This document shows, piece by piece, positions 11,207-30,399 of a stretch of DNA of 64,000 bases (the first letter of the stretch is position 1; each line of letters opens with the position of its first letter). Source of the DNA: Candidatus Thorarchaeota archaeon (lineage in GTDB: Archaea; Asgardarchaeota; Thorarchaeia; Thorarchaeales; Thorarchaeaceae); contig JAWOEX010000024.1 of assembly GCA_046482545.1 (NCBI GenBank), forward strand, positions 1 to 64,000, written 5' to 3'. Below the pieces are notes generated by a model that had not been told where the DNA came from, ran no database searches, and saw nothing but the letters and a program-made list of their open reading frames with translations. The translations under genes and the position numbers were made by a program.

Positions 11207-11212
11207 CTATAC

Positions 11213-14200
11213 TCACTCCCTCAACATTTCTTCAATCTGTTGCAAGAAGCTCTCTTCTCGCCACCAGCGTAGGTCCCGTGCACCTGTTGGACAGATTGCA
11301 CAACAAGCACCGCATCCTTCGCAGCGAAGTTCGTCAGTTCGGCTCTTCTTTACTCCAGGTTCTACTTCAACCATCGATACTGCATCGTATGGACATATTT
11401 CCGAGTAGTTACACAGATCGCAACCTACACACAGATCTTGGTCAACTTCTGCAACCAATAGCTCAATTTCCACCGTACCCAGATTCAATGGAGCACAGGC
11501 TGCACTTGCTGCTCCTCGTGCTTGGTTAATCGAATCTGCAACATTCTTCGCATAGGTTACACCCAAAAACACGCCAGGGATATTAGTCTCAACAGGCTTG
11601 AATTTCATGTGCATTTCTCTCAGGAATCCATCGGCTCCTCGGGTAATGCCTATCGCTTTCACTAGTTCATCCACATCATGAGGTGCTTCAAGGCCAACAG
11701 CTAGCACAACCATATCTGATTTGATTTTCAACGTTTTCTGTGATAATGTGTCATACATGGTGACAATTGCCCTTTCTCCGTCCTCAGTTGGCTCAACTTG
11801 CGGCGGATTTTCCCGCACCCATCGCAGATAGCTGACGCCTTTCTGCCTGTTCTCTCTCCACATCTCCTCCATTCCATTAGCGAATGGTCTGATGTGTTCC
11901 TTGTAGGCTGAGAATACCCTGATATCCGGGAACATTTCCTTCAGCTCGTTCTGCATGGCTATGACAGCAGAACAACAAACCCTGGAACAATATCTGTTTC
12001 CTTCACCCGGGCTCTGTCTTGATCCGACACAATGAATGAATATTGGATTCTTTGGCGGCTCTTCAAGCTCCCCATTCTTCAACATCCGTTCAAGTTCAAG
12101 GGTCGTTATTACCGCAGGAGTTTGTTCCCATCCATATTCACCGTCTTCAGGGTCATAGGTGTCTGTTCCTACGGCAATTACCATGGATCCTATCGTATGG
12201 CTAGTTCGTTCACCGTTCTGATTCTCCAGAGTGATTATATAGTTCCCATATGTTCCATCGCGAGCTACGGGTCTCGAGTTAAGAATCACTTCGATTCTAT
12301 CTTGTTCTTCAACCCTAGCTATCAGATTATCTACGATTTCCTGAGCGTCAACCATTTCTGGGAATAGCCTGTAGAGATCGTTGAGTCTTCCACCTAACCT
12401 ATCATTCTTCTCCACTAGGATGACATCAAAGCCTTTTCGTGCGACATCGAGTGCGGCAGTCATTCCAGACACTCCTCCTCCGACCACCATACAAACCGGT
12501 GTCACCTCGACTGTTTCAATAGGTACCTCTTCATTATTGATTGCCTTGGCCACGCCGCTTCGAATCATATCTTGGGCCTTTTCTTGACGCACTTCGGGGG
12601 GGTCATTTGCGTTAACCAGTGTGAGTTGCTCACGAAGTCCCACTGGACCAACTAGGTAGTACCCCGACAATCCTGCAGCTTCAAGTGCCGACCTGAAGGT
12701 GTCCTCGTGCTGCAATGGTGAACATGATCCTACTACGACTCTGTTTAGATTGTGTTCTTTGATGGCCTCAGTAATAAGCTCCTGACCTGGGTCACTGCAC
12801 ATGAAGATGTAGTCGGTACTATAGGCAACATTCGGCAAATCACCGGCCCAATCAGCCAATGCAGGCGAATCAATCACATCGCCGATAATTCCTCCACAAT
12901 GGCATATGAAGACCCCTACTCGGGGCTCATCGCCCACTTCAATTGGTGGTACTTTCTCTTGAGGCTCTGGTTCCGGTACTGGTAATATGGACTCTGCAGC
13001 CATCGCTGCTCCCTTGCCCTCATTTACTGTATCGGTTCCATCCTTTGGACCATGAATAGTACCAGCCATGAAAATACCTGGTCGGGTAGTTTCGAGTGCA
13101 GCTGAATTGGGATTTTTCTCTTTGACCCATCCAGTCGGTTCGAGTTCAATATCCAAAATCTGTGCGAGTTCCTTGTACCCTTCTGCCGGTCTGAAACTGG
13201 AATTCAAGACTACCATTTCAACACTCAGTTCCTGAATTTCTCCGGCCTCCGTATCCTCAATTTTGACCATCAGATTGTTTGTATCGGGGTCTTCATTGAT
13301 TTCCGCTGCGCGTCCCCGGATGAAGTTGATAGCTTGGTTGTGCTGGCTATCCCAAAGAAACTCTTCAAGGGCTTTTCCACAAGTCCTCAAATCCATGTAC
13401 GAGTAGTAAATCTTGCAGTGATCTTCCGGATAGTGCATACGGGTAACTTGAGCCAGCTTCAATCCAAATGAGCAACAGACTCGGTTACAGTGATTGCTAT
13501 ATCCCTGAATGTTTTCTCGCACATCTCTTGAACCAACACAATTGACGAAGAGAATAGATTCTGGTTCCTTACCATCCGATGGCCGTACCATATGTGCATC
13601 TGTTGGTCCGGTAGGATGTGTCTGTCTATCGTATTCTAATGTTGTGACAACATTAGGAAATACACCATACCCGTACTCCGCATAATCCGTAGGGACGTAT
13701 TCCTGAAAACCTGCTGCGTTGATAATTGCTCCCACATTCAAGTCATATTCCGTGTCTTCATCGTCGTAGATGATACAGTCTTGGGGGCAGACTCCTGCAC
13801 ATGTTCCGCACCCTATGCAGGCATCTTTGTCTATGGTGGCAACAAGCGGAATCTGTTGCGGAAAATTCATGTATATGGCTTTACGAAGTGAAAGTCCGCC
13901 ATCATATTCATTTGGGACCTCTACAGGACACGACTTGATACAGAGTCCGCATCCTGTACACTTGTCTTCATCTACATAACGAGCTTTCTTGTGTACTGTG
14001 ACGGTGAAATCCCCTGCTTCGCCCTCCACCTTTTTTACTTCAGATAAAGCATGAATCGTGATATTCGGGTGCTTTCCAACAAAGGATGTGAGTGGAGTCA
14101 TAACACAAGCAGAGCATTCCAATGCGGGAAAAATCTTGTAGATCGCCACATAAGCTCCACCGATATTAACCGTGCGCTCTATGAGATGAGCGTGATGTCC

Positions 14201-14311
14201 ACCTTCTGCAAGGGCCAGAGCTGCATTGATACCACCCATTCCTGCCCCAATAATGGCCACATCAGTTGGTTTGGACTTGGCAGAATGTTCGTTGCTGTTA
14301 TCGCTGACCAT
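11213..14311 (-). CDS. hdrA: Second large tandem-type HdrA
   Basis: GAGMGG and GGGVSG FAD motifs, KIFPALECSAC, CVGSRD, CNRVCC, CHCG, multiple ferredoxin motifs. Confidence 0.92.
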   Translation of the reverse strand: MVSDNSNEHSAKSKPTDVAIIGAGMGGINAALALAEGGHHAHLIERTVNIGGAYVAIYKIFPALECSACVMTPLTSFVGKHPNITIHALSEVKKVEGEAGDFTVTVHKKARYVDEDKCTGCGLCIKSCPVEVPNEYDGGLSLRKAIYMNFPQQIPLVATIDKDACIGCGTCAGVCPQDCIIYDDEDTEYDLNVGAIINAAGFQEYVPTDYAEYGYGVFPNVVTTLEYDRQTHPTGPTDAHMVRPSDGKEPESILFVNCVGSRDVRENIQGYSNHCNRVCCSFGLKLAQVTRMHYPEDHCKIYYSYMDLRTCGKALEEFLWDSQHNQAINFIRGRAAEINEDPDTNNLMVKIEDTEAGEIQELSVEMVVLNSSFRPAEGYKELAQILDIELEPTGWVKEKNPNSAALETTRPGIFMAGTIHGPKDGTDTVNEGKGAAMAAESILPVPEPEPQEKVPPIEVGDEPRVGVFICHCGGIIGDVIDSPALADWAGDLPNVAYSTDYIFMCSDPGQELITEAIKEHNLNRVVVGSCSPLQHEDTFRSALEAAGLSGYYLVGPVGLREQLTLVNANDPPEVRQEKAQDMIRSGVAKAINNEEVPIETVEVTPVCMVVGGGVSGMTAALDVARKGFDVILVEKNDRLGGRLNDLYRLFPEMVDAQEIVDNLIARVEEQDRIEVILNSRPVARDGTYGNYIITLENQNGERTSHTIGSMVIAVGTDTYDPEDGEYGWEQTPAVITTLELERMLKNGELEEPPKNPIFIHCVGSRQSPGEGNRYCSRVCCSAVIAMQNELKEMFPDIRVFSAYKEHIRPFANGMEEMWRENRQKGVSYLRWVRENPPQVEPTEDGERAIVTMYDTLSQKTLKIKSDMVVLAVGLEAPHDVDELVKAIGITRGADGFLREMHMKFKPVETNIPGVFLGVTYAKNVADSINQARGAASAACAPLNLGTVEIELLVAEVDQDLCVGCDLCNYSEICPYDAVSMVEVEPGVKKSRTDELRCEGCGACCAICPTGARDLRWWREESFLQQIEEMLRE

Positions 14312-14536
14312 CTACGATTACTCCAGGTTTGATGTGCACTATTTTTCGTTTTCCTGTTTGAGATATAACACTTCTGAAATGGGTTGTCTGAATATTTGAT
14401 GGTTAACCTTCAAAGCTTTATAATAATCGGCAACGACTACTTGAAGCTATAGTATAAGTATGCTAATGCTATCAATTGCTCATCATACTATGGAGCCCCT
14501 CAGCAAGTCGGTAGCATATACAGGAGTTGACCTCGC

Positions 14537-15547
14537 GTGAGATACGTCAAAATGACAACTGCAAACACCTTCAAGTTCCTCTCGTATCTGAAGGAAAACG
14601 TGACACTCTACGCTCCCACCAAGATTTCTCAACAATTCTATGATTTCACAGAGATTGATGATGTAGATGCGGTGGAGTTCAACTACAATCGAACGATACG
14701 CCCTCCACGGCGTCTATTTTTTCCGGAGGAGGAAACAATGTTCCGCTTTGATACCGACAAAGTTGAGCTCTATGAGAATACCCCTCGTGAAGGGAGATTC
14801 GTGGTTTTTGGTGTGCATGCATGTGATGTTGTCGGTCTGCGAATACTGGATGCCGAGTTCATTGATGAGCAGCCTGACCCTTACTACATGAAGAGACGAG
14901 AAAAGGGGATTATCATTGGTCTATCATGTTTGCCCGATGAATACTGCTTCTGCAATGTACGCAGGACCGAGTTTGTGGACAAAGGTTTCGATCTCTTCTT
15001 TCATGAGATAGAGGACGGATATTTGGTGCGTGTAGGGACAGTGCAAGGCCACAAGCTTCTGGATCCAAAACCAGAGCTAGTCGATGAGATAACACAGGAA
15101 GATATCGATTACATGGAGGATTTCGAAGAAAAACGGAGTTCCATGTTCACTGTGCAAGGCAACTGGGATTCGTTGAGGTATTTCTTGGAGTTGCGCCTAG
15201 ACCATGCCATGTACAACCGGGAGAGCGAGAAGTGCTTGGGCTGTGGAAACTGCACCCTTACGTGTCCTACTTGCAGGTGCTATGATGTAAAAGATGTCCC
15301 GAGTATCGACGGCAAGACGGGTGAACGTATTCGCTTCTGGGATTCCTGTCAGTTCAGATCACATGGATTGGTGGCGGGACCACACAACTTCCGTCCAACA
15401 AAGGAATCGCGATTCAAGAACAGGTATCAGTGCAAAAATGCTTATTGCGAGGAAGTAACCACGGCCTATTGCGTTGGATGCGGAAGATGTACCTATTACT
15501 GTCCAGCGGAAATTAATTTCAAGCGTAATTTAATGGAGCTATCATAG
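14537..15547 (+). CDS. hydB: Group 3b [NiFe]-hydrogenase (sulfhydrogenase) beta subunit; last codons supplied by the island junction
   Basis: FGVHACD, CLPDEYCFC, CLGCGNCTLTCPTCRC, WDSCQ, CVGCGRCTYYCP. Confidence 0.9.
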   Translation: MRYVKMTTANTFKFLSYLKENVTLYAPTKISQQFYDFTEIDDVDAVEFNYNRTIRPPRRLFFPEEETMFRFDTDKVELYENTPREGRFVVFGVHACDVVGLRILDAEFIDEQPDPYYMKRREKGIIIGLSCLPDEYCFCNVRRTEFVDKGFDLFFHEIEDGYLVRVGTVQGHKLLDPKPELVDEITQEDIDYMEDFEEKRSSMFTVQGNWDSLRYFLELRLDHAMYNRESEKCLGCGNCTLTCPTCRCYDVKDVPSIDGKTGERIRFWDSCQFRSHGLVAGPHNFRPTKESRFKNRYQCKNAYCEEVTTAYCVGCGRCTYYCPAEINFKRNLMELS

Positions 15548-15548
15548 A

Positions 15549-16234
15549 ATGTGTACTGTGTCCATCGAGCATAGCAAAAAAGGCGTTAAGGTAAGAAGAG
15601 AATATGATGAAAAGGTTGAGGAAACTGTTATTGGTGGTTCTTTTTCCGTGAATGCTGGAATTGATTGTATAAACCTTGGAGATTTGCAAAATTGCAAAAA
15701 GTTGTCTGAGAACCGTTACTGTAACAACTCTAAAATCATCGATATAAGTCCGCTAAAGGAATACTCTAACCCGCATGAAGTAAATCTGGGTCGTAACTCA
15801 TCTGAATATGTGAACTTAACCTCTTTTTCCTTCTGCAAAGAACTACAGAGAATCGCATCAAATTGCTGTAATAATCTTAGATCGTTAGTACTACATAATA
15901 ACAAAATTGAAGAATAGATTTGGATTCTCTATCAGTTTGTAAGAAATTACGTAGTCTGGTGTTGGATGTCAATAGACTTGATAATCTTGACCTATGTTCA
16001 TTGAAATATTGTCAGGATTCTGAACGATTTTCTGTTGATAATAACCGCCATTCAATAGATATCTCCCCGCTCGAAAACGGTGATAGAATAAAGGACGTCA
16101 TTCTTGATAGAAACAAATTGCCAGAAATAGGAGAACCATGGTTCCGATACCTGTCGAAAAATCGCGAGCTACATTTATTAGTAGGTTCCCTACCCACTAT
16201 CGCGGCTTGTATATGTATCTGCATTGGAGCGTAA
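15549..16234 (+). pseudogene. Frameshifted leucine-rich-repeat protein
   Basis: IDISPL..NLRSLVLHNNKI / LRSLVLDVNRL repeats; one missing base near 15912 (GAA GAA [A]TA GAT TTG) splits the two ORFs; low GC. Confidence 0.75.
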
Positions 16235-16441
16235 GTAATGCGGTATGTGACGAGCCACACTTGTTCTGAACCAAGTTGTATGTGCAGTCCTCGGGCCGTT
16301 TGTACTTATTCTCCTTCTGAATTCTGTCCGAGGAATAGACATGACTAGACGAATCCACCTAAGAGAAATCGTGATGACTGATATCATCACTGGAATGATA
16401 CCGGCACCAGCACAGGGTGTGCACTCAGGAGGGGGCACAGA

Positions 16442-19084
16442 ATGAGGTTCCATGCCAAACGTGTGAACAAGTTCCTCTCCATAACCCTTGTGCTGACGCT
16501 GTTCTTCATGTCACTTCATGTTGTAACAGCTGCTGGTTCTGCTAACGATGAAGACACCATTTCAACACCTGAGTATATCATGGATTGTTATGATGGTGTC
16601 GGGTTTGCGGATAGACCTGGCGGCATATCCGACCTGCAATCGACCCTTGACGCTGTCACCCTCCTCATGGAAACCGAGGAGAAGTGGCCGTACGGTTTGT
16701 GGCATATGATCGAAAGCGTTGTGACACGCTACAAAAACATGCAATCCCCGTATCTTAACGGTTTTGTACAGGGTAATGTGTCTCGGGATCACCCTGATTT
16801 CCGCACAACTGCCCTTATTCTTGAGACACTTAAGGCATTGGGAAGACTAGATGCAGTTGACCTTGAAAGAGTTAGACGGTATCTGAAGGCTAGTTTCCAT
16901 GAGTCCCTTACCATGGATCTCTGGCTCACAGAGGGCGATTTCGACCAAAAGTACTGGGCACTCAGGACGGCTGCCGCGATAAATAATGTTGAGATTTTGG
17001 GTATCAAGAAGATAGATTTGGGGCGGATTATCGGTCCTGATGCGAACAGGGCTGACTTCCCGGAAGACGAAACCTACCTACGATGGGGTGAGGAACATTT
17101 TGAGGGGAGTATCTACGGAGGGTTCTCCGAGGAGCCGGAAGATAAGCAGTTCAAGATAATCGACTCGTTCAGCATGATGCTCAAGGAAAAGGACTATGCG
17201 AGAACTATCGCACCTCTTTTGGTGGATTCAGAGGCATTTGTTGATGACATCCTTGAGGGTCTGGCTCAGGAAAGTGCTATCATCGAGAATAGTAACGGTG
17301 AGAAGAATCTCCGCCGGACAGCAAGAGTATATGACATACTCAACAAGACAGGATTGTTGGACAAACCCTTCAGTGATGGGACAGGTGCATACAGAGCAGT
17401 ACATACACACGATTATCTAACACAGGCAAAGGCAAACCTCCGAGGTGGTTTCAGCGACAGGACAACCTCACTTTCTGACCTCCTGTATATCCAAATCCTA
17501 CAAGAAGTGCTTGACAGAGCTATCAATAGCAGGGCCGCGGTATTTTCTCCAGTGTTCTCAGACTCAAACGGAGCCATCCTTGCGAGTGGTGACGAGGCAT
17601 CTGAAACCTTGACAACAGGCATAGAAGAATGGAGTGTGGATTATGATGATATCGTTTATGTTCCCGAAATACTGTTGGAGAATCAAACATCGAAAGACAA
17701 CAACCCTTCACCACTCCCGTTCTTGATTCTGATGTGTTCGCTCATTGGCAGCGTGATAGCATCAGGAGTGCTGGGTGAAAGGAACCTTACAATTTTCCTC
17801 TCGATATGCCTCATTATCCTGTTCGTGGTCCAAACAGGGTTCAGTGTAGATCAAGTTCTCAGGGATGTATCCGCCTTCGTGTCTGAATCATTCTCTAAAG
17901 CTCAACAAACACAACTGGAAGATTCGCTTGGAAACAGTATGCTCTCTATTGGAACACAGTGGCTTGACCTAGACTATTCGGGGCCATCAGAACCAAACGA
18001 GGACCACCAGTTAGAAGAAGACACTCCAGAAACGATGCCTAAACAAATGACCCCCGCAACAGTCAAGGCTTTAGACTCAATAGAGGTCGAAGTTGATATT
18101 CGTCTGGAGATATATCCAAATCTCATAAGGTTAGCAAAAAAACTTTCGAATCTGTTTATCCAAACCGATGATGGAAGATATGATCCAAATATGGTTTGGG
18201 ACATGATAAATACTAAAATCAAAGAAACCGAAAGCTCTACCATTACATTTGGAGAGGGGAATGATATGGTAAGTATGAGTGGTGAAGCAGTCAGGGATTT
18301 TCTAAGTTTTGTAGAAGGATATGAGGAAGTTAGAATACGGGACATATTGGCAGTGCTTGAGAGAGTAGCGAATATTGAATTACAGGGAGAAGAACCTGTA
18401 CTCATCCGGAATCTAGCTCATGATATGAGTAAGAACACCGCAAGAAATCTGGATGGTCTGTTGATGTTGCTAGAGGCTATCGAGGACGGAATAGGCTCCT
18501 TAGGTGACAGTGGTGTGACTGTTGAAATTATATATAACGAGAATGCCATGAAAGAAATTAATGCGATGGTTAAAAAAATCCATGGTGTTTTTCCCCTTGA
18601 TAACAAACAACGTAAGGATATTAGAGAACTAGGATTCCGCATTCATGCGCGTATGGAGGCCGCAGACCTATGTGGTGACAAGACGAATCTTCTAATAAGA
18701 ATCGAAAGAGAAGAGGGATCATACCAAATTATCCGCGACAGCTGGGGTATGGAGATACTTCGACAATGTCTTCCGCAGGGAGATTCTATCGCAAACACAT
18801 TACTACAGAATTATGGAAATAATATCTATGAAATTCTCGGGGAACAAATTCCGTTTCATTTGCAACTAGGTGATACAACCTATACCTATGCTTGGATGTA
18901 TTCCGCAGCCGCTATGCTAAAAGATATTGAGCAAGACCCACGTGTTGATTATTCAGCACGATTATCTTTTGGTAATCTTGAATTGCCGGATATTATACGA
19001 GATGCATTGGACATCGTGATAGATGATATAGCGTCGGATGAAGTGAGGAGAAATTGGGAATCACCCTTCCTTCAAGGGGGGTGA
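16442..19084 (+). CDS. Secreted/membrane protein with prenyltransferase/squalene-oxidase-repeat-like N-terminus and two TM helices; probable N-terminal part of a giant protein
   Basis: Signal-like N-terminus, GFADRPGG..DLQSTLDAV and PDFRTT..LETLKALG repeats, hydrophobic segments ~aa 425-470. Confidence 0.65.
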   Translation: MRFHAKRVNKFLSITLVLTLFFMSLHVVTAAGSANDEDTISTPEYIMDCYDGVGFADRPGGISDLQSTLDAVTLLMETEEKWPYGLWHMIESVVTRYKNMQSPYLNGFVQGNVSRDHPDFRTTALILETLKALGRLDAVDLERVRRYLKASFHESLTMDLWLTEGDFDQKYWALRTAAAINNVEILGIKKIDLGRIIGPDANRADFPEDETYLRWGEEHFEGSIYGGFSEEPEDKQFKIIDSFSMMLKEKDYARTIAPLLVDSEAFVDDILEGLAQESAIIENSNGEKNLRRTARVYDILNKTGLLDKPFSDGTGAYRAVHTHDYLTQAKANLRGGFSDRTTSLSDLLYIQILQEVLDRAINSRAAVFSPVFSDSNGAILASGDEASETLTTGIEEWSVDYDDIVYVPEILLENQTSKDNNPSPLPFLILMCSLIGSVIASGVLGERNLTIFLSICLIILFVVQTGFSVDQVLRDVSAFVSESFSKAQQTQLEDSLGNSMLSIGTQWLDLDYSGPSEPNEDHQLEEDTPETMPKQMTPATVKALDSIEVEVDIRLEIYPNLIRLAKKLSNLFIQTDDGRYDPNMVWDMINTKIKETESSTITFGEGNDMVSMSGEAVRDFLSFVEGYEEVRIRDILAVLERVANIELQGEEPVLIRNLAHDMSKNTARNLDGLLMLLEAIEDGIGSLGDSGVTVEIIYNENAMKEINAMVKKIHGVFPLDNKQRKDIRELGFRIHARMEAADLCGDKTNLLIRIEREEGSYQIIRDSWGMEILRQCLPQGDSIANTLLQNYGNNIYEILGEQIPFHLQLGDTTYTYAWMYSAAAMLKDIEQDPRVDYSARLSFGNLELPDIIRDALDIVIDDIASDEVRRNWESPFLQGG

Positions 19085-22000
19085 ATCCTCTACTTGTTTC
19101 ATGTAAACAAACGGGAGAACAAATAGAATCAAATAATATTGAATCCCATGGTTTCGTATGTTCATATGGTCTAAAGGGTGACAAGATTAAAATTGGTATG
19201 CGATTCTACGATAATGGTAGGTATACAAAGGGGTATGACAAATCCGTACGGGAACTTAAAGTACAAAGAAACGATGTATCCTTGAAGGATGTTCTTGATT
19301 CTGCTTCAACTAAAGGATATGCGTCACCAAGTATCTATACTATTGTACAAGGAGAAAAGAAGATTCCCGCAGTTTTCACTCTTAGCGAAATCAATATTGA
19401 TGGAAGTCAGATTGATTTGAATGCCTTGGTGGGTCGGAAATACAGCCAACTCAGAAAACAGGTGACGGATGGTAAGATACCTTCTGGGATTTTGGTGTGG
19501 CTATCAACTAACGGTATAATTAAAGAAGGATCTACAGGAAGACTGGAACCTAATGACGATTTTATTATTGAGTATATCGACAAATATTCCAAAAATAAGA
19601 TTACAAATCTACCGGAAGGTATAAAGAAAATTGAGGATGTGGCGGGAGGACCGTTTAGTTACGACGATAGTGTAGAGTTGGACATCAATTTGGAAGAAGA
19701 AACATTGAGAAGGATTGCAACAAAAACGATTGGACATTCACAAAACAAGCCTGAATTTAAGCGGGTACATGTCTGTAATGACTGGGGTGGTACAGTAGAC
19801 CTAATGTCACAGGGTTCTGCCGATAGACGCACTAATTCATACATGGCGAAGTTATATGATTTTTTGGAATATCTAAGACAAAACAAAGGTAAAACATTGG
19901 AAACAAAAACCGAAAAAGTGTATCAAACATTAACGAGAACACTCATTGAATCACGACCAAAGGGTATAGACAATTATCGAATTGCTAGAGGAAAAGACTC
20001 TTTTCTTCATTCAAATGAATTATTAAATACCCGAGATGAAATTGTCTTTTCTTTAATGGCACTTGGTAATGCCATACCCGGAATGGCATATGATAACATG
20101 GAGATTAGGCATGTTCTGCCAGCACTGGCGGGGGTGAAGCTTAACGCCGATGATTCACTAATAGGCCCGGAGTGGGATTCGGTAATAGATAAAATGAAGA
20201 AATGGGCTCCAGGTGCCTACGCAGATGTAATGTCATCACTCTATGGTGGGGCCAAAACGACTAGAACAGGTACTCGGTCACAACTTCTACTTCAAGAAGC
20301 TCCAATAGATCACAATCTCAAGGTACGTTCATGGGTAATTGGTGATGAGATATATGTACAGGTCGTTGACCACTACTATGTATCTGGGAAAAAAGGTGAT
20401 AATCTCCTCATGGCAGGGGGTGTGGAGGCTCTTGATGGTTTTTCTTTGCAATGTGTCTTTGATGCTTCGAAGATAGAGAGATTATACCTCAAAATATTCC
20501 AAGATTGCGCTTCTTTGAATACATGGATGAATCCTATGTCCCTTAGTGATTGTCAGAACGCAGGTAATAGAATATACTTGCCCCATATAGTTGCATTGGA
20601 TCCTAACATGCAGTACAGAATTGCACTAGAAGTTGTTGCTGGTAACATGGACAGAGAAGAACTATCCGAGTTAGGAGATATCATATATCAAATAATGATG
20701 CGTGTAAATGATTATACGAAAAAGGATATCATAATGGAGGAATTGGGAAAAGAATTTAGCACCGAAAAAAAAGGATGGCATCTACATCATAATGAACCTG
20801 TGTATACGGTAGATGGGCGGGAATTCGTAGGCTATCTGAGAGGGATGACAAAAGATGCATATGAGCTTGCTGCTGTGAAGCTGAAGATACAAATGTTGGA
20901 TGCCGCAATTAGGTCAGGCAAAATTGCTCCTTCTAAAATGGAAGAAACTATGGAACACATAGAGGGCTTGGCCTATGAAGCTATTCAGAGAGAAAGAGTA
21001 CTAAAGTCATATTACGAATCTAACAAAAAGAAATTCGAGGCAGTACAGGGTAGCAAGGGAGGAGATAAGCGAATCAAAATAGGAAATAAGCTTCTTTGGA
21101 ATTTCTATGGTCAAAATGACATTGTTGCACAGAACGCGTTTATTGCCATTAAAGTTATAGCTGATACTGATATTAGTGAAATGGTTTACTTAGAAGATAT
21201 AAACGGCAAACCATTGAACAGAATGGGCAGTTATATCGAACATCCACAAGGAATACATTCGCGTAATCAACTGAAAGGTCATATGGGTCTTGTGACCCAC
21301 TTCAAGCCTGCCGCAGCAAAAATGGTGGGAAGGACCACGATGTTCAGAGGGTATGATATAAGGCACATAGATGAAGGTGATGATAACAAAGACTACCGTC
21401 TTGGGGCATTTAAAGATGATAAACTGGAATATTATGTGGATTGGAGTGTAACAGATACAACTATGCATACTACTGGAAGGCGTTCCAAATACAATGTTGA
21501 AATCGATGGAGTAGTTAGCTACGATTCTCGGTTCCTATTTACCGTGAAGGAACCGATTTCAGAAAACACAATTTGTGGTTTCGAGTTCTATGTATTTGCT
21601 CAATCGCACCAGGCTGGAGGTTGGCACCCTGACTCGATTAATTACGAGTATTTGAAAAACACACCTGCTGGTCTCTTCAGTATATTGATGGATAAAGGCG
21701 GTGCGGCTATGGGAGTATCCCGTCAACCTGCAATCATGACTGAGGGGGGTTTCGAATTACATTCAAGAAATTGGAAAGCACAGAAAGTGAAGAGTCTAGG
21801 TAATATCAAATTCTTCTCGGTAAATTCGATAAGCGAACTATTCGATGCGGGTATTGTTGAAAAGATGGAACTCTGGAAACATATAGTTGAACACTCCAGA
21901 CTCAATCCGGGACCTTACACTTCTGGTGTTGATATTGACCTCCTTCACTCTTGGATTTCATGGTACAGGAATCGCTACGATGACAGTCCCCACCTATTCA

Positions 22001-25000
22001 CACGGAACATCCCAGTACAAGTGGAACAATTCGACACTCTTGGTATCCAAGAAGATCTGCAATCCTCAATAGCATCATGGTTTGCCGAATTACTTCACAA
22101 CGATAGCATGTCTGATACCCTGAAAGAAATCAAGCTTCAATCTGTTGCATACAAACACATGGGCCTAGAAGAGCTCTGTGATGACTGGGCATATCCACCG
22201 TATCAAATTGCAGAATGGCGCTACACCGGCATGGACGAGAAGGCGTGGTACACAGTCGGTGACAAGTCCCAAGCCCTCTACACGGCACGATTCGGAACAA
22301 CCGACATTACTCAGACCGTCAACATAGACATCGAACCAGACCGAACCATGAAGGTTGACAAGATCCAGCTGTTCCTCACAGAGCTGGGCGATATCTACAA
22401 CAATACCGTAGAGTTTCGTGTCGAGGTATCAGACGGTAGTGATGTAGTCACCGGCAGCACGATACTCACAAAGGAAGGCGCAGTTGACATCCCTCTGGAC
22501 AGACAGCTTGAGGTTTCCGATGGTGACACCCTCTACGTTACCATACCCATACAGGATACAACCGGCCGAACGTGGCTCTTTGACAGCAATATGCTCAGCA
22601 GACTGTACAAGAAACGTGCCGGACAGTTCGAGGTAGATGGAAGAGAGCTACCGGGTCACTCCATGTACGTTTCTATCCATGATGCTGAGAAGGCATCGAT
22701 CATCGGTTGGCAGAAGACCGGCACCCGGTTCGAGACCGGCATAGATGATGATGTAAACATGCTCATCGGCGATGGAATAAACTTCCTGAACGCACACTTC
22801 ACAAGCTACCCAGAGGATAAACTCCCCCGGACAATCATCGCAGCAACCAATTTCGACTCGGAGACCAACACGACCTACATCAAGTATGAGGAGTACAAGT
22901 ACGAAGAGACACAGATCTACAGCGATATTCCTGGTAACCGGGCAAAGGAGACACCTATCTACGTCTACGGCAAAGAACTCCCTGTTGATTACATCGGTGC
23001 CGGCCTGAGCATTTCTGGCTACCCGAATGTCAAGAGCATCTCCCATTCACGCGTCATCGAACTAGTCTATGGCGGTGAACCGGGCGTCCTTGTCATAAAT
23101 ACCGAGATGATACCCTCACAACTGCTCGCAGTAAACGACAAAGGCATACCCAAGTTACGTGAATGGATTAACGCTGGCAACCAAGTGGTCTCGGCAGGTG
23201 TCTTACCCTTCTCAGAGACCATCGTCAACGGTGAACTCCACAACACCTACGATTTCCTGTTCCACACAGAGACATCAACCGTTGGAACCGACCGACTTGT
23301 AGAATTATCATATCAGGACGAAGCCGCAGCCGTCTGGTCTGACCCGATTCAAACCTACCAGTGTGAGAACCCGGGAGAGGCCAACGAGACTCATGTCTTG
23401 GACCTTGATGGTGAAAACGACGACTGGATATCCCTCAGCGGTAACAAGCGCAACGAGGATGGAAGTGTCACCTTTGTCTTCGCGATGGCACTCGATGACA
23501 TAAATGGCACATCAAAACAGTACCAGACCTTTGACCTGTTTGTTGATGGCATACCGATATTCTCCAACTTCGCAACAGATCAACTCTGCTATCTTGATGG
23601 TGGTCTCGATGCTGGCTCAAAGGTATTCTATGATGAATACATGAACAACCGGATGTTCGTACAGCATATAGAGAACGTGCCACGATCAACAACCAGTGAT
23701 GTGGTCTATCCCAATTACCTCTGTTACCTGACAGTACGTGAATCACTCAATGCCGGTCCGCATACGGTCACCATCGCAGACAATCCTGATAACAAGGGCT
23801 CACAAGAACTGCGGATCCTTGACCTGAACAATATCCTTGCCTACGAGTACAAGCATCACAAGGAGACCCTGCTTGCTATCGAATCACAGTATCAGGGCAT
23901 GCCGGAAATCGGTGCGGGTGTCTATGCTGTTACAGGCAAGGATATGGTGAGATGGAGCGAAGATGTGGGCCGAGAATCCTTCACCATGCAGAGTATGGTG
24001 GGCCTTGAACCAACCCGAACCGTCCTAGGTGTTGACCTCTCAGAAGCTCATCCGTACCGCACCTATGCAAAGGACATCACCAACAGCTACGGTGAGTGCT
24101 CGGTAAAGGTGGGTGCAGGAATGTTCACGATGCTTGACCTCTATACCTACGGTCTTGACTCGTACTGGCATACCCTTGCAGAGCTCAACTATGTCCTGAC
24201 AGGCGTGGTTGCCGACTGGTATAAGATGCACGACCAAGACACCGAGACCGACTTTTCACCGGGAGCAGGTGATGATTTCGAAGGCTTGCTTGTGGATGTG
24301 GGTGTTCCGTCTATTTCAGAAAACGTTCCGGGTGGCCTTGTTCCAGAACAGGATGCCAAGGCCAACGGCACATACGCCAATTCATTCGAGGAAACCGAGC
24401 CCTTGGAAACAACCAATGCTGACCTTGTATGGGATGATGGGCGTCTCTTGGTCAACTCGACAACGCAAGATACCTTCTCAGTTGACCTTGACACAGCGGT
24501 GGAAGGCTACGACTATCTCATGTTCGATATCTCCATGTTCAACTGTACGGTTTCACTCAATTCCACACAGGTCTTGGGCGAAGCTCAACCCGGACTCAAT
24601 ATCCTCAAGCTCCCCGAAGGACCGTACGATAACATCACTCTCGTAGCAACAAGGAACACAGGAAGTGCTTCTGGGTGGTTCAGGATCGAATGGATCTCTA
24701 CTTCTGAAGTGCCTGCCCTTGCTGGACCTTCGCAACTCTACATCCAGCAATTCACAACCAGCACCAACCTTACAACTACAGGTTTCGAAGATGATACACT
24801 CACAATTGCAGATGGCAACATGATACTCACGCACGGTCATGATGGCGACTCGGAAGACAATGATTCTGTCCACTTCAACCTCGCCGAACCAGTACATGGT
24901 GCTGGCCTGCTGCTCGACATGAAGCACCACATCAACACAACAAGTACAACAGGTGTGGAGCTTCAGGCAACACTCTACTCTCAAGCAAGCCGGGAGGGCA

Positions 25001-26748
25001 ATCAACAGACCATCTCTCTAGATATGGCCACGACAAGTATAATCGACAGGAATTCTCTCACGCTTGAAACAGTATCCTCTATCGAACTTAGCGTGGTATC
25101 TCAGATCTCCTCCTTGCCGCTCAACTGGACTGTTGATTATCTTGAGATCGTAGAGGATGGTGACGTGGCTCTGGATACTGTGTCGCCGTTATACACTGAA
25201 ACTACTGGTGCCGTGGAAACCATAACGGATGAAACCCTGACCATACGCAGCGATGGAACAACAACCGCAGAGGTTTACATCCCTGATATCGAATTCGACC
25301 TTGGTTTGTATCCCTACACCCATGTGAGAGTATCAAACCTGAATCTGACAAGTGCCAGTATCAGGCTCTGTACCTCAAACGGTAACTACACCCACATCAT
25401 CACTGATAACGAAACGACCGTGTTCACAGATGATGTGGATTCAGGAACGATTGTATCAGGCATCACGTTACTTGTCGGTTCTGATGGTCTCAATAGGACC
25501 ATGACCATAGACGACCTTGTGTTCTCTCCCATACAGGAGCCGATAGACGAACGTGTAAGTGTCCAACTGGAATATTCTACACAGAACGGTGACACCCTCA
25601 TAACCCTGGATGATTATCTCATGGACTGGGGTACGGGTACGCTCGCACTTTCCAATGATACCGAATCTGTTACGCGTGCGGAAACACAGATTGTGGAGTG
25701 GAATACCGAGTACATAGCACTCAGGCAAGATGTTGTCAACAGGAACGTCTCCGTCAATGCCGTATTCCACTTTGATGGCATCGTTGATGTCTCGGTTACA
25801 AGCGCGGACTATGGCATGACCTTTGCGCTCAACAAAAAAGCCACCAAGTACTCTGACTCCTTTGGTGTTATGCCCAACAACGTAACAGAGGAAATCCTGC
25901 GCTCACCAACCTTTGCCGCTTTGTACAGCTATGGCATAGGCTTTGGTGTTACAGGAATCAGTACAGAGCAGGTATCGGCATTCGTGGGCCAATCATCCTT
26001 TACCGTCAGTGCTATGGCAAACGAGAGTATCATGCTCCTGCCGGTACTGGCAGAGCGGTTCGAGCTCATCGATGGCGTGGAGATAGATCCCAACTTCGTT
26101 GTCGATTTCGAGGACATCGACATCACAGGCCTTCTGGACAACTGGGATGGCACCCTTGAGAGTCTTGATGTGGCTTACTGGCACGGGGCCTTCAAGGAGA
26201 ATTACGCACTAAAGCAGACCTTTCTGGATACGTCATACTGGATAGTGGATAACACTGGCCATGACATGACCACTGATGAGGCCCTTGACAAGACCAAGAT
26301 GGGTTGCACGAACGGCAAGATGAACATCACAGTCAATGCAAACCAGTCTGCTCTTGCAGAGACCGTTGTATTGAACCTCAACTATCTCTCTATCGATTCC
26401 TCTGCGTTCCCGTTCATGCGCCTTGTGCTTGACGGCACAGGCCACATATCCGTGTCTGTAAAACTCAATCTCACGGATGGCACAACATCTCACATCTTCC
26501 ATGTCACAAGCATCACACCAGAGGAACCAACAAGCGATGAGCGCAACCTCTACGTCCAGCTTATCGATGATGGTTGTGGCTACGAAGAATGGACCATTCA
26601 AGGCATCGAACTGTGGATGAATGAAACTGATACAAGCACGGTTATGAACAAGTCACGCGTCTCGCTCTCGTTTTCGAGGGATAAGCCGCTCGTTCTTATG
26701 TCAAGCTTCGGGGAGCTTGTGCTTGCCCCACGGGTGGTGAGGAGATGA
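19054..26748 (+). CDS. Very large hypothetical protein (2564 aa): AT-rich basic N-terminal region, acidic T/S-rich beta-type surface-protein-like region, PCNA-like C-terminal ~31 aa
   Basis: Uninterrupted 7.7 kb ORF; overlaps the upstream ORF in the -1 frame at a G6 tract. Confidence 0.75.
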   Translation: MGITLPSRGVNPLLVSCKQTGEQIESNNIESHGFVCSYGLKGDKIKIGMRFYDNGRYTKGYDKSVRELKVQRNDVSLKDVLDSASTKGYASPSIYTIVQGEKKIPAVFTLSEINIDGSQIDLNALVGRKYSQLRKQVTDGKIPSGILVWLSTNGIIKEGSTGRLEPNDDFIIEYIDKYSKNKITNLPEGIKKIEDVAGGPFSYDDSVELDINLEEETLRRIATKTIGHSQNKPEFKRVHVCNDWGGTVDLMSQGSADRRTNSYMAKLYDFLEYLRQNKGKTLETKTEKVYQTLTRTLIESRPKGIDNYRIARGKDSFLHSNELLNTRDEIVFSLMALGNAIPGMAYDNMEIRHVLPALAGVKLNADDSLIGPEWDSVIDKMKKWAPGAYADVMSSLYGGAKTTRTGTRSQLLLQEAPIDHNLKVRSWVIGDEIYVQVVDHYYVSGKKGDNLLMAGGVEALDGFSLQCVFDASKIERLYLKIFQDCASLNTWMNPMSLSDCQNAGNRIYLPHIVALDPNMQYRIALEVVAGNMDREELSELGDIIYQIMMRVNDYTKKDIIMEELGKEFSTEKKGWHLHHNEPVYTVDGREFVGYLRGMTKDAYELAAVKLKIQMLDAAIRSGKIAPSKMEETMEHIEGLAYEAIQRERVLKSYYESNKKKFEAVQGSKGGDKRIKIGNKLLWNFYGQNDIVAQNAFIAIKVIADTDISEMVYLEDINGKPLNRMGSYIEHPQGIHSRNQLKGHMGLVTHFKPAAAKMVGRTTMFRGYDIRHIDEGDDNKDYRLGAFKDDKLEYYVDWSVTDTTMHTTGRRSKYNVEIDGVVSYDSRFLFTVKEPISENTICGFEFYVFAQSHQAGGWHPDSINYEYLKNTPAGLFSILMDKGGAAMGVSRQPAIMTEGGFELHSRNWKAQKVKSLGNIKFFSVNSISELFDAGIVEKMELWKHIVEHSRLNPGPYTSGVDIDLLHSWISWYRNRYDDSPHLFTRNIPVQVEQFDTLGIQEDLQSSIASWFAELLHNDSMSDTLKEIKLQSVAYKHMGLEELCDDWAYPPYQIAEWRYTGMDEKAWYTVGDKSQALYTARFGTTDITQTVNIDIEPDRTMKVDKIQLFLTELGDIYNNTVEFRVEVSDGSDVVTGSTILTKEGAVDIPLDRQLEVSDGDTLYVTIPIQDTTGRTWLFDSNMLSRLYKKRAGQFEVDGRELPGHSMYVSIHDAEKASIIGWQKTGTRFETGIDDDVNMLIGDGINFLNAHFTSYPEDKLPRTIIAATNFDSETNTTYIKYEEYKYEETQIYSDIPGNRAKETPIYVYGKELPVDYIGAGLSISGYPNVKSISHSRVIELVYGGEPGVLVINTEMIPSQLLAVNDKGIPKLREWINAGNQVVSAGVLPFSETIVNGELHNTYDFLFHTETSTVGTDRLVELSYQDEAAAVWSDPIQTYQCENPGEANETHVLDLDGENDDWISLSGNKRNEDGSVTFVFAMALDDINGTSKQYQTFDLFVDGIPIFSNFATDQLCYLDGGLDAGSKVFYDEYMNNRMFVQHIENVPRSTTSDVVYPNYLCYLTVRESLNAGPHTVTIADNPDNKGSQELRILDLNNILAYEYKHHKETLLAIESQYQGMPEIGAGVYAVTGKDMVRWSEDVGRESFTMQSMVGLEPTRTVLGVDLSEAHPYRTYAKDITNSYGECSVKVGAGMFTMLDLYTYGLDSYWHTLAELNYVLTGVVADWYKMHDQDTETDFSPGAGDDFEGLLVDVGVPSISENVPGGLVPEQDAKANGTYANSFEETEPLETTNADLVWDDGRLLVNSTTQDTFSVDLDTAVEGYDYLMFDISMFNCTVSLNSTQVLGEAQPGLNILKLPEGPYDNITLVATRNTGSASGWFRIEWISTSEVPALAGPSQLYIQQFTTSTNLTTTGFEDDTLTIADGNMILTHGHDGDSEDNDSVHFNLAEPVHGAGLLLDMKHHINTTSTTGVELQATLYSQASREGNQQTISLDMATTSIIDRNSLTLETVSSIELSVVSQISSLPLNWTVDYLEIVEDGDVALDTVSPLYTETTGAVETITDETLTIRSDGTTTAEVYIPDIEFDLGLYPYTHVRVSNLNLTSASIRLCTSNGNYTHIITDNETTVFTDDVDSGTIVSGITLLVGSDGLNRTMTIDDLVFSPIQEPIDERVSVQLEYSTQNGDTLITLDDYLMDWGTGTLALSNDTESVTRAETQIVEWNTEYIALRQDVVNRNVSVNAVFHFDGIVDVSVTSADYGMTFALNKKATKYSDSFGVMPNNVTEEILRSPTFAALYSYGIGFGVTGISTEQVSAFVGQSSFTVSAMANESIMLLPVLAERFELIDGVEIDPNFVVDFEDIDITGLLDNWDGTLESLDVAYWHGAFKENYALKQTFLDTSYWIVDNTGHDMTTDEALDKTKMGCTNGKMNITVNANQSALAETVVLNLNYLSIDSSAFPFMRLVLDGTGHISVSVKLNLTDGTTSHIFHVTSITPEEPTSDERNLYVQLIDDGCGYEEWTIQGIELWMNETDTSTVMNKSRVSLSFSRDKPLVLMSSFGELVLAPRVVRR

Positions 26749-27101
26749 AGATGATACCGGATGCGAGATCTACCGGGAAGCAGAACGATATCGAGTATAA
26801 CGGTTTCTGGAAGCCAGCTAACAACAAGCCTGTAGGGGAATATGTCCTTGTCTGGGTTTCGGACTGGCTCAAGCAGGACTGGGGCTTCTACTGCTACATT
26901 GCTCTTGATAGGCATAGGCAGGACCTCAAAGGAATCCACGCCCTGATTTACAAGCTCAATTGCCACGGGGTCGATGTATACGTTGAGCTGGTTGACCATT
27001 CGCTGGGATTGAGGGAGTTCTACAGCGAGCAATACAACAGGAACAGGATATCACACTATCATATCCTGAAGCCGGAGACATGGACGGGTGCTATCAGATG
27101 A
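26745..27101 (+). CDS. Hypothetical protein (island)
   Basis: ATGA overlap with the giant ORF; SD-like GAGGAG. Confidence 0.55.
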   Translation: MKMIPDARSTGKQNDIEYNGFWKPANNKPVGEYVLVWVSDWLKQDWGFYCYIALDRHRQDLKGIHALIYKLNCHGVDVYVELVDHSLGLREFYSEQYNRNRISHYHILKPETWTGAIR

Positions 27102-27221
27102 GATTACACGAGATTGGTGGGAGGTAAAGATATGCGAGGAAAACTAACGAAGAAACAACTAGATGAACTGAAGCATAACATCAAAGAAGCATTGAGTTTC
27201 ATAGGTTTCGCGGCAGATGAA

Positions 27222-27297
27222 ATCATCACCATCGGAAAGACTATATAATTAAGACCCACGCCCATCATCACCATCGGAAAGACTATATAATTAAGAC
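27222..27297 (+). repeat. Exact 34-bp tandem direct repeat, each copy with a BRE/TATA-like motif
   Basis: ATCATCACCATCGGAAAGACTATATAATTAAGAC at 27222-27255 and 27264-27297, 8-bp spacer. Confidence 0.9.
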
Positions 27298-27306
27298 TCC
27301 TGCTAC

Positions 27307-27351
27307 CGTAATTTGATGGAAATAGGTGGCTATCAGGGGGTTAGTAAGTAA
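27307..27351 (+). pseudogene. Displaced original 3' end of hydB (RNLMEIGGYQGVSK*)
   Basis: Same RNLME peptide as the hydB end; stop overlaps the hydG start (TAATG). Confidence 0.8.
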
Positions 27352-28208
27352 TGACCAGTGAACACGAAAACATCTATGATACTTCCAAGTGTCGACTTCT
27401 CAGAGAATATGACCTTTCAGATGTGGATAAACTCTTCCTCTTCAGGTTCGAGGATCCTGAGAAAGCACAAAATTTTCGATTCAGGCCCGGTCAGTTTGTT
27501 GAGGTATCGATTCTTGGAGTGGGAGAAGTCCCGATCTCGATATGTTCTTCGGCTCGTCGAGTTGGTTTTTTCGAGCTCTGCATTCGGAATGCTGGAAGGG
27601 TAACATCTGTTATCCACCATCTGAAACCGGGAACCCTCATTGGCATTCGGGGTCCATATGGTAATGGTTTTCCGATGGAGAAATTTCATGACCGCGATTT
27701 ACTTCTGGTGGCCGCTGGGCTGGGGATGGCTCCGTTGCGGTCGGTATTCCTCTATGCCCTCGATAATAGGTGGTTGTTTGGCGATATTACTATCATCAAC
27801 AGTGCGAAATATGCTGACGGTCTGTTATTCCGGAAGGAGCTCGAAGCGATGAAAGATATTGCTACGGCTGAGAACATCTCCATTGTTCAGACAGTTACTC
27901 GCGATTCTGATTTTGATGGACTTCATGGGCGTGTTAACACGCACTTCGATAAGGTCAACGTCGATTCGGAAAACTGTACTGTGGCGATGTGCGGCCCCCC
28001 GGCGATGTACGCTGGTATGTTCGAAGAATGCATCGAGAGGGGATATGACCCCCGCTATATTTTCGTCACCCTTGAGCGCAAAATGAAATGCGGTGTGGGC
28101 AAATGCGGTCATTGTAATGTTGGAACTGCTACATCATGGAAATACATCTGCAAAGATGGCCCTGTCTTTGATTACTACGATGTGATGAGTATACCCGGCC
28201 TGATATGA
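27351..28208 (+). CDS. hydG: Group 3b hydrogenase gamma subunit (FAD/NAD-binding, 2Fe-2S)
   Basis: PGQF, GEVPISICSS, RGPYGNGF, AGLGMAPLRS, MKCGVGKCGHC..ICKDGPVF. Confidence 0.93.
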   Translation: MTSEHENIYDTSKCRLLREYDLSDVDKLFLFRFEDPEKAQNFRFRPGQFVEVSILGVGEVPISICSSARRVGFFELCIRNAGRVTSVIHHLKPGTLIGIRGPYGNGFPMEKFHDRDLLLVAAGLGMAPLRSVFLYALDNRWLFGDITIINSAKYADGLLFRKELEAMKDIATAENISIVQTVTRDSDFDGLHGRVNTHFDKVNVDSENCTVAMCGPPAMYAGMFEECIERGYDPRYIFVTLERKMKCGVGKCGHCNVGTATSWKYICKDGPVFDYYDVMSIPGLI

Positions 28209-29068
28209 TGGAGGAAGTCGAGATGGTAACAATAAAGCGGGAAAAACTGGCGATTGTCGAGGAGTGTCGGGGAGACGAATGTAAACCACGAGTTGGAGTT
28301 TATGCTCTTACTTCGTGCTATGGCTGCCAGCTGAAATTGGCAACTGTAGAGAGGATTTTGGATATAGCGAATGCAGTCAACATAGAAAGCTTCTACATGC
28401 TTTCCAGCAATAGCACCATTCCTGCAGATGTCGACGTAGCCTTCGTTGAAGGTTCGGTATCAACAGAGAAGGACTTGGAGGATCTTCTTGAGGTCAGAAA
28501 ACATTCGAGAATTCTCGTTGCTCTGGGTGCTTGTGCAGTGAATGGCGGTGTCCAAAGTTGGGTTGAATGCGAGATGGACTATGAACAGCTCTATGCTGAA
28601 GTCTATGGCGACAAGACCATTGGTATGCAAGGACGTCAGGCTACGCCTATTTCTCATCACGTAGAGGTTGACTACTCCTTGCCTGGCTGCCCACCAGAAG
28701 AAGCCGAAATCATGTATTTCATATCCAGCTTCCTGTTTGGTACGTTTCCAGAGCCTAAGGATTATCCAGTATGCGCAGAGTGTCGATTGGCTGGAAATCC
28801 CTGTATTCTTATCGAACGTGGTGAACCTTGCCTTGGTCCCGTAACTACTGCTGGGTGCAAGGCTCGCTGTATTTCCTTTGATGTGCCCTGTATTGGCTGT
28901 AGGGGCCCGGTTCCACATGATACCGCTTGGTTTGATTCACTCGCTCTCACCTTTGAAAAGAAAGGCTTGGACGAAGATGTCGTGAGGGCTCGCATGCGAA
29001 TTTTCGGTGCACATAATCCCGACTTGGAAGAGATGCTGAACAAAGTGTATGGAAGTGATAACGAATGA
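28205..29068 (+). CDS. hydD: Group 3b hydrogenase small (delta) subunit
   Basis: LTSCYGCQ, EGSV, GACA, PGCPP, CLGPVTTAGC.A.C..CIGCRG. Confidence 0.93.
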   Translation: MMEEVEMVTIKREKLAIVEECRGDECKPRVGVYALTSCYGCQLKLATVERILDIANAVNIESFYMLSSNSTIPADVDVAFVEGSVSTEKDLEDLLEVRKHSRILVALGACAVNGGVQSWVECEMDYEQLYAEVYGDKTIGMQGRQATPISHHVEVDYSLPGCPPEEAEIMYFISSFLFGTFPEPKDYPVCAECRLAGNPCILIERGEPCLGPVTTAGCKARCISFDVPCIGCRGPVPHDTAWFDSLALTFEKKGLDEDVVRARMRIFGAHNPDLEEMLNKVYGSDNE

Positions 29069-30399
29069 CTCCATCGAAGAAGAAAGAGAGTAAACAGAAA
29101 ATCACTCGGGAGATATCCATAGATCACATTGCTCGAATCGAAGGAAAGGCTGGAATTGAAGTCACTTATGACGGTTCTCAGGTAGAACTCGTCCGGGTGA
29201 ATGTCTTTGAAGGTCCTAGATACTTTGAGGCTATAACTAAGGGGAAACCCATTGAGGAAGCTACCGCAGTCTTTCCAAGAATTTGCTCTTTCTGTGCTGC
29301 AGCACACAAAGTGACTGCTCTACAGGCCGCGGAAAACGCTATTGGGCTCAAACCAACAGAACAGACCCGAGCCCTTCGCGAGCTGTTGTATACTGGCGAT
29401 TACATAGAAAGTCACGCCCTTCACTTATTCCTGCTTGCTTTACCTGACTTTCTTGGGTATCCTGATGCATTCTCCATGGCCGAGGATCATCCCGATGTAG
29501 TCAATGCTGCCATAGCTCTCAAGGATATTGGAGCAGACATACAGAACGTTATTGGTTCTCGCTACATCCATCAAGAAAACGCGATATTGGGTGGTTTTGG
29601 CAAAATTCCATCAAAGCAGTCCTTGGAAACATTGGCTAGACGTCTAAGGATGTTGCAGTGTGAAGCTGAGGAAGCCCTGGAGCAGCTTGTCAGCTATCCC
29701 AACTGGCCGGAAGTGGACGCCAAAAGAACGCACTTGGCCCTTGAACCTCATGATGGTTCATACACCATGCTAGGTGATACAATAAAAGCGAGCGATGGTA
29801 ACGAGTTCAAGGTCGATGCTTATCAGGTTAGGATGGCTGAAGAGGTTGTCCCCTATTCCTTTGCAAAGCATGGCACATACAGTTTCAACCCCTTCATGAC
29901 CGGAGCTATTTCACGTTTTTCACTGTTTGGCCACGGAATTAGTGCTCGAGCCGCCGAACTCGCAGAGACATATGCATCCCACCTTGACCCGAAGAACCCC
30001 ATGAGTAACAATTTCGCACAGTCTGTAGAGCTTGTGCACTTTGTCCACCGGGCCGAGAAGATTGCCGAGGACCTAGCTAGTGACCTGAAACCATACGAAA
30101 AACGAATCGAGCCAAAGGTGACGAAAGGCGGTAAGGGGGTAGCAATCACAGAAGCTCCTCGAGGCCTTCTTGCTTATACCCTTGAGGTCGACAAGAATGC
30201 CAAAGTAGTATCTGCGGACATCATAACTCCTACTGTAATGTTTCTACCCATGATGGAAACTGATCTACGAAGGATGGCTGAGGGTCTTGTTTCAGATGGG
30301 ATGAAGGAGCCTACTGAAATCGGTAACAAACTAGAGACCGTTGTTCGAGCTTATGATCCCTGTATTTCATGTAGCGTTCATGTAGCGGATGTCAGATAG
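29065..30399 (+). CDS. hydA: Group 3b [NiFe]-hydrogenase large (alpha) subunit
   Basis: ARIEG, RICSFC (L1), DPCISCSVH (L2) with short cleavable tail. Confidence 0.95.
   Translation: MTPSKKKESKQKITREISIDHIARIEGKAGIEVTYDGSQVELVRVNVFEGPRYFEAITKGKPIEEATAVFPRICSFCAAAHKVTALQAAENAIGLKPTEQTRALRELLYTGDYIESHALHLFLLALPDFLGYPDAFSMAEDHPDVVNAAIALKDIGADIQNVIGSRYIHQENAILGGFGKIPSKQSLETLARRLRMLQCEAEEALEQLVSYPNWPEVDAKRTHLALEPHDGSYTMLGDTIKASDGNEFKVDAYQVRMAEEVVPYSFAKHGTYSFNPFMTGAISRFSLFGHGISARAAELAETYASHLDPKNPMSNNFAQSVELVHFVHRAEKIAEDLASDLKPYEKRIEPKVTKGGKGVAITEAPRGLLAYTLEVDKNAKVVSADIITPTVMFLPMMETDLRRMAEGLVSDGMKEPTEIGNKLETVVRAYDPCISCSVHVADVR

Follow-up and report, generated by a model that had tools for sequence, protein, structure and literature searches.

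Integrase islands can reside in a protein-coding gene, as do e14 and phage 21 in icd, and a circle that carries host DNA integrates by insertion-duplication, as in F-prime formation, specialised transduction and plasmid integration. Protein-coding genes are common targets of islands that rebuild them (TIGER/Islander type; PMC12884075), and islands with an intragenic attB are known in archaea (PMC8371274). IntpTN3, an archaeal recombinase of low specificity, acts on shared homology in pairs of ~100 bp or more (PMC5495485). As to mobile DNA of Asgard archaea, the Aloposons of Heimdallarchaeum carry giant genes in tandem, and tandem giant genes were mentioned in Thorarchaeota as well (Wu et al. 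2022, PMC8813620), and the Asgard viruses Opia, Nidhogg and Skoll encode PCNA (PMC11529989). Our literature search for a natural integrase-free family of the kind described below returned nothing relevant, which we take as weak evidence.

Exploring a window of 64,000 nucleotides from Candidatus Thorarchaeota archaeon (the whole stretch that was analysed), we found an island of 11.8 kb that separates hydB from hydGDA; the features of hydB, the island and hydGDA given below lie on the forward strand. Profile match and alignment to P. furiosus SHI beta identified hydB (14537-15547) as the gene of the beta subunit of group 3b sulfhydrogenase (336 aa), and hydG (27351-28208), hydD (28205-29068) and hydA (29065-30399) are intact and identical in the same-species genome. 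The best models for the four genes are HydB, HydG, HydD and HydA, in agreement with the identity and order given in the first-pass annotation, all of them scoring under equivalog cut-offs that we take to have been built on Thermococcales. Close homologues bear labels of MAG proteins from Thorarchaeota or Lokiarchaeota. The hydB-G-D-A order, the subunit families and the Ni-binding motifs of a group 3b NiFe hydrogenase operon are all present, and the cofactor motifs are kept in all four ORFs, so that all four subunits are retained as annotated, HydB being shortened though. The end of hydB occurs twice, where it had been annotated. The right copy (27307-27351) is the displaced native hydB tail; it matches the same-species empty allele exactly from 27314 onward and its stop overlaps the hydG ATG at 27351. 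The left copy (15524-15547; RNLMELS followed by the stop) differs from the right one by one substitution and an 8-nt deletion, which shifts the frame and leads to a new hydB stop (TAG). The island had been said to repair the gene end; instead, the 9-residue native tail is swapped for 2 new residues, giving a HydB of 336 aa versus 343 aa in the same-species allele. The shortened protein keeps all (Fe-S) cysteines and the whole stretch aligning to P. furiosus SHI beta (residues 1-333). The direct repeat at the island borders is 8 bp long if exact and 14 bp long with one mismatch. Both this 14-mer and the 7-mer GCTATCA that follows the two copies are genuine; at one mismatch or less, ~0.003 copies of the 14-mer are expected in 11.8 kb and none occurs inside the island, and the shared 14-mer thus exceeds chance.

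Related genomes do not share the separated arrangement. hydG comes directly after hydB in 31 of 32 related loci, the remaining locus ending before the downstream sequence, and the empty hydB-hydG site that the annotation had expected was seen as well in the two congeners and in one genome of the same species. In the congeners, hydB continues directly into hydG and ends with the tail found at the right edge of the island; their empty sites contain the core sequence and their alleles agree with a join of the two copies in the window. The same-species genome (GCA_051748335.1; L206) lacks the island and matches the window without a difference over 10903-15504 and 27314-31958. The empty sites of the congeners and of the same species therefore indicate that the annotated insertion in the 3’-end of hydB is real and that it is polymorphic within one species. 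Given that the genome is metagenome-assembled, we considered a misassembly or a chimeric bin. This would require two independent misjoins at overlaps of 8-14 bp, and the island is only 83% identical to its other copy; furthermore, a Logan contig of run SRR31818008 covers 23285-27108 at 100%, and a second one from this run starts precisely at 27314, one base past the last difference between the alleles. An assembly artefact is thus extremely improbable. The same contigs, one covering 23285-27108 and one from 27314, suggest that both alleles are present in one sample.

Comparison of the alleles revealed that the same-species empty allele and the window differ at 9 positions in 15505-15532, all synonymous except for one Q/R exchange, and at 3 positions in 27308-27313, with no SNP outside this tract across ~9.2 kb. 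The empty allele is therefore not the join of the two copies, at odds with the precise excision that had been assumed. As for the 14-mer in its proposed role of site core, it is present in the window copies and in the congeners but missing from the same-species empty allele. The ten patch codons of the empty allele are unusual: 7-8 of them differ from the congeners (94th-100th percentile of upstream windows) and only 1 differs from genus g12 (upstream mean 7.7, minimum 3), at p 0.002-0.02 by a rough binomial estimate allowing for 32 comparisons. The window version of 15505-15532 is ordinary for the genus. By these codon counts it is the empty allele that looks foreign, carrying a patch of 30 bp whose limits coincide with the island junction. 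In the simplest history, the ancestral codons would survive in the island allele, homeologous recombination having either taken out the island or brought in and removed a related element. The reverse assignment, with the window tract as the foreign one, was given up as the empty version is atypical of the genus and near g12; an extension of the patch to the left of 15505 was also dropped, as 3 of 9 codons differ there, within the range of other genera. Separately, three genera share an identical stretch of ~20 bp close to the hydB end (L206 4623-4652; L222; L228), with 5-9 of 10 codons differing in all others, and this identity may be the mark of repeated short-patch exchange at the hydB end.

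The allele comparison can also be read in the opposite direction, with an ancestral empty allele into which gap-repair gene conversion recently copied the island, decayed by then, from a congener, the flanks being very short (15505 to 27313). The absence of SNPs outside the tract agrees with a recent import, as do the decayed state of the cargo and the empty Q-type end found in four other strains, some of them more distant. However, the foreign-looking tract belongs to the empty allele rather than to the window, the ends of the imported flanks would have to fall exactly on the borders of an older patch, and the first insertion would merely be shifted to another lineage. We regard such an import as unlikely.

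To judge what had been inserted, we analysed the genes of the island. A broken LRR gene, in pieces of 122 aa and 104 aa (15549-16234), begins 1 bp past the new hydB stop. A 32-bp motif that opens with a 12-bp palindrome (16133-16164) is the exact start of homology to two other element copies, and the block from 16133 onward shares 83-84% identity with a second copy, on contig C20 of the window’s genome, and with the copy in G001. The 5’-part of a giant gene (16442-19084; 880 aa) follows, with a signal peptide-like start, a prenyltransferase-like toroid and a membrane hairpin. At a frameshifted G run near 19076-19081, through which the C20 copy reads, it is split from the second part (19054-26748; 2564 aa). 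Compared with the C20 copy, the 5’-part shows pS of 0.48 and pN of 0.11, a ratio indicating that it evolved under purifying selection. Residues 949-2534 of the second part align to residues ~1700-3300 of ~10,000-aa proteins in Thorarchaeota of other genera, the window gene covering the first ~3,300 residues of these relatives. It closes with the last ~33 codons of the PCNA gene that the element itself carried, which continue the giant ORF in frame (26646-26748); given this ending, we infer that roughly 20 kb was deleted between the giant gene and the PCNA tail. Downstream lie a conserved element gene of 118 aa without a family (26745-27101), which occurs in several copies and is confined to this genus among 86 family genomes, and a truncated 38-aa copy of the element’s 79-81-aa gene (27132-27248). 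Fuller relics carry the giant gene, four or five small genes, PCNA, the 118-aa gene and the 79-aa gene in this order, often with an LRR gene, and LRR genes adjoin the giant gene in most related loci. The broken LRR gene, the frameshifted giant gene and the truncated small gene bear out the annotated decay of the element, and likewise no integrase is visible inside the island. Judged by the identity and the decay of its cargo, the island is what remains of a large mobile element of Thorarchaeota, which carried an LRR gene, a ~10,000-aa surface protein, PCNA and small ORFs.

No integrase, transposase or viral hallmark (capsid, terminase) was found in any element piece recovered, the small genes of the element matched no Pfam or PHROG family, and scans of IMG/VR and JGI with PCNA or giant-protein queries gave no match. 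An intact element was not among the recovered copies, the full-length giants running to contig ends. The 32-bp motif was considered as a terminal inverted repeat of the island and rejected, as the window has one copy of it, inside the island; in other copies, an inverted copy of it sits ahead of the element PCNA gene, and an exact scan found none in other species. Three of the giants have open frames of 9,975 aa (L065-L066 = G054 C28 148-30075), >10,134 aa (L063-L064) and >9,743 aa (L067-L068), nearly without Pfam match; in these ~10,000-aa proteins (L063-L068) the N-terminal ~500 aa and the residues from ~1,700 are conserved, and the intervening part is variable and A+T-rich. As to homology with the Aloposons Otus and Ephialtes, one 460-column giant profile, covering one region, gave three weak matches outside the family among 400 phylum genomes. 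A 14,437-aa ORF in another Asgard family (L182-L185, G221 C5 999860-1043173) has weak similarity to the giants; it was dismissed as a member of the same element as only weak patches, and no neighbours, are shared. Fragments that by eye, and without family match, are radical-SAM-like recur beside the small genes of the element (L109 500-2037; L104 1-474). Elsewhere in the window, a second, divergent PCNA gene (3178-4005) shares 40-43% identity with the element PCNA and occupies the same site in both congeners; it is possibly a settled copy from an older element. A multicopy repeat of ~320 bp (4377-4699) touches the start of an hdrA-like gene; G001 and G002 contain many copies of it at 67-82% identity and none at their matching site. 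Positions 1-200 hold the end of another multicopy repeat, common to several places in G001 and G002.

The same cargo family was found at six unrelated loci in the genus, hydB and five others, between duplicates of 24 to 439 bp; the cargo is ~80% identical between sites and no common core was seen among the six loci. The C20 copy sits in the end of a gene that we take, from its motif, to be a DUF1015 gene. A different, genus-typical end completes this gene, the native end is displaced by 8.3 kb, and the site is empty in G002. The duplicates at the other loci are of ~333 bp in an acyl-CoA ligase gene, 361 bp in a hydroxyacyl-CoA dehydrogenase gene and extending into the next gene, 439 bp in cbf5, and 56 bp, perfect, in a gene of 508 aa (G002). 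Left and right copies differ with pS/pN of 0.78/0.14 at the ligase, 0.51/0.00 at the dehydrogenase and 0.67/0.06 at cbf5, and this mostly synonymous divergence indicates that the copies evolved as working genes in separate lineages. By this measure, the two copies at the ligase, cbf5, dehydrogenase and DUF1015 sites appear to derive from different lineages. At the ligase and at cbf5, it is the displaced copy that is more native. The displaced copy at cbf5 is less native over its first ~120 bp (73-82%) than further on (89-98%), a pattern predicted by a crossover within the duplicate. Beyond this cargo family, the end of an acyl-CoA dehydrogenase-like gene (L189; G000 C26, gene end 257393, copy near 259101) has a perfect 40-bp duplicate with 1.7 kb of unrelated cargo between the copies, and similar displaced gene ends occur at G000 C12 84520 and C38 1269. 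A duplicate of a nucleotide-sugar dehydrogenase-like gene on C43 was not retained as a further case, as G002 holds the same two copies.

One cargo at six unrelated genes, each time between duplicated ends, points to homologous recombination rather than to a site-specific integrase, and the very different lengths of the duplicates do not fit the fixed att core that had been annotated. Nevertheless, the hydB site has the geometry that integrases leave, i.e. a replaced end and a displaced native end. A classical integrase island would have entered with the hydB end in its attP by crossover in the 8-bp core, the integrase being deleted later, and would have reached the other genes through swaps of integrase-attP modules. 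That protein-coding targets are commonly reconstituted by islands, in archaea too (PMC12884075; PMC8371274), makes this conceivable, and it agrees with the core sequence at the empty site of the congeners, with the loss of ~20 kb in which an integrase might have lain, and with the ~20-bp stretch common to three genera, which could mark a recurrent target. On the other hand, at least six specificities would be needed for cargo that is ~80% identical, no integrase or fragment of one occurs at any site or elsewhere in three genomes, the duplicates reach 24-439 bp and one runs across two genes, the orientation of the cargo relative to its target is unlike between hydB and DUF1015, and the empty allele of the same species departs from the precise product. 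A former integrase island is thus rather unlikely. Searches for a recombinase were in line with this. PF00589, PF16795 and PF07508 had no match in G000, G001 and G002, genus genomes that are 96-99% complete and in which the controls were positive, and the resolvase family PF00239 had none in G000, the sole genome scanned with it. Tyrosine recombinases are present in 19 of 46 family genomes, and the three genus genomes are without any such match, XerA-like included. Support for the annotated alternative of mobilisation in trans was thus lacking among the tyrosine and large serine recombinase families searched in these three genomes. No tRNA was detected in the window or in seven related loci, the downstream ends of the full giants being contig ends, and no tRNA or ncRNA was found as insertion target.

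If the target was instead duplicated at insertion, by break repair or by an unknown transposase, both copies would be native, the left one mutated later, and no foreign hydB DNA would be involved. The left copy can be derived from the right one by one substitution and the 8-nt deletion, perfect duplicates do exist (56 bp in G002; 40 bp on G000 C26, with other cargo), and the 32-bp motif, inverted within other copies, resembles a terminal repeat. Yet this motif lies away from the island borders, the length of the duplication is not constant, and the synonymous-rich divergence at the ligase, cbf5, dehydrogenase and DUF1015 sites is left unexplained. Target duplication is accordingly quite improbable.

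We favour insertion-duplication by homologous recombination via captured gene ends, to which we give a slightly better than even chance. Elements of this family would carry a piece of a relative’s chromosome, often a gene end, and a circle with the carried piece would pair with the resident copy and integrate by a single homology-driven crossover. The incoming copy would then finish the gene, and the resident end would be pushed beyond the cargo. The agent may be host RadA-type recombination or a homology-tolerant recombinase from the lost part of the element. At hydB, the duplicate would initially have been short (at least 8 bp, probably ~29 bp) and was then eroded by the 8-nt deletion, leaving HydB 7 aa shorter. 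In the later collapse, the LRR gene was presumably broken, the giant gene frameshifted, ~20 kb deleted and the right end trimmed, which would have left a duplicated TATA-like motif ahead of hydGDA and a relic no longer able to move by itself. The 30-bp patch in other strains of the species may have been left as a scar when homeologous recombination later took out the island. The circular intermediate, the enzyme, the order of events and the sharing of the sister-site route by hydB are what we infer from the comparison of the loci. Several points weigh against homologous recombination. A lost integrase is still conceivable, given that no intact element was recovered and that tyrosine recombinases do occur in the family. 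The hydB duplicate is too short to show a foreign left copy, and a mutated native duplicate fits equally; moreover, 8-29 bp is short for RadA, so that erosion of the duplicate must be assumed. The ligase case crosses a contig break and relies on synteny with G000, the dehydrogenase site does not tell which copy is native, and the six sites, from one genus, are non-independent samples of the mechanism.

The right edge of the island bears on the expression of the downstream genes. It contains two exact 34-bp copies (27222-27297). Each copy bears a BRE-TATA-like motif formed where the truncated gene meets unique filler, one TATA-like motif lying at 27284, and this duplicated 34-mer is unique to the hydB island site. 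On a BRE-TATA matrix that was trained on 597 upstream regions and is weak, the 34-mer scored at the 93rd percentile of upstream regions and the 99th of coding windows, and the same place in G001 scored at the 29th and 54th percentiles. It is plausible that the island edge forms a new candidate promoter for hydGDA. Since all island genes point towards hydG, read-through is possible as well. A sigma-70 promoter scan, a model not suited to archaea, gave no match.

Extending the favoured route to the genus, we tentatively suggest, and with considerable doubt, that these relics represent an undescribed family of large Thorarchaeota elements, encoding surface proteins of ~10,000 aa, that has no fixed attachment site and integrates wherever a captured piece of a relative’s chromosome matches. 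On entry and exit, core genes (hydrogenase, Cbf5, ligase) would trade their ends across species and even genera, with chimeric proteins and short patches of foreign DNA as the result. If true, this would be an Asgard route by which giant genes, LRR genes and extra PCNA copies spread while the C-termini of core proteins are exchanged, and much of the Thorarchaeota mobilome would be missed by integrase-based island finders. As the site is polymorphic in the species, and apparently in one run, the direction of change, excision and the effect on hydrogenase expression are testable from existing reads.

Compared with the systems described above, the element shares a divergent, element-borne PCNA with the Opia, Nidhogg and Skoll viruses; unlike these, the pieces recovered are without capsid, terminase or other hallmark, and IMG/VR contigs gave no match. 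Like the Aloposons, it is Asgard mobile DNA with giant proteins that leaves fragmented giant-gene relics, and some of its relatives are split into tandem giants. The Aloposons, however, have tandem genes of 3,000-6,000 aa, whereas here single ORFs of ~10,000 aa occur in three genomes, tandem giants at two metagenome loci and a relic in the window; there is also no tRNA target in the window or the seven related loci and, in the loci read, no MinD/ParA four-gene block upstream, the upstream gene being LRR in most. With insertion-duplication systems it has in common a target set by carried homology, a variable duplicate length and many possible targets. It differs from them in being natural, in acting between species with partners that are 70-85% identical and in recurring with one cargo family, and, unlike for IntpTN3, no such enzyme was found here. 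Integrase islands of the TIGER/Islander type resemble it in inserting at a gene end, with the replacement end on one side, the displaced native end on the other and the gene kept open, but here no integrase was found, six loci are occupied, the duplicates vary from 24 to 439 bp, the gene is shortened and the empty allele is imprecise. Because islands that replace gene ends are well known, the single hydB site is ordinary in kind. Less so is that, in the absence of a recombinase, one cargo family resides at many unrelated core genes between duplicates that are alleles of other species.
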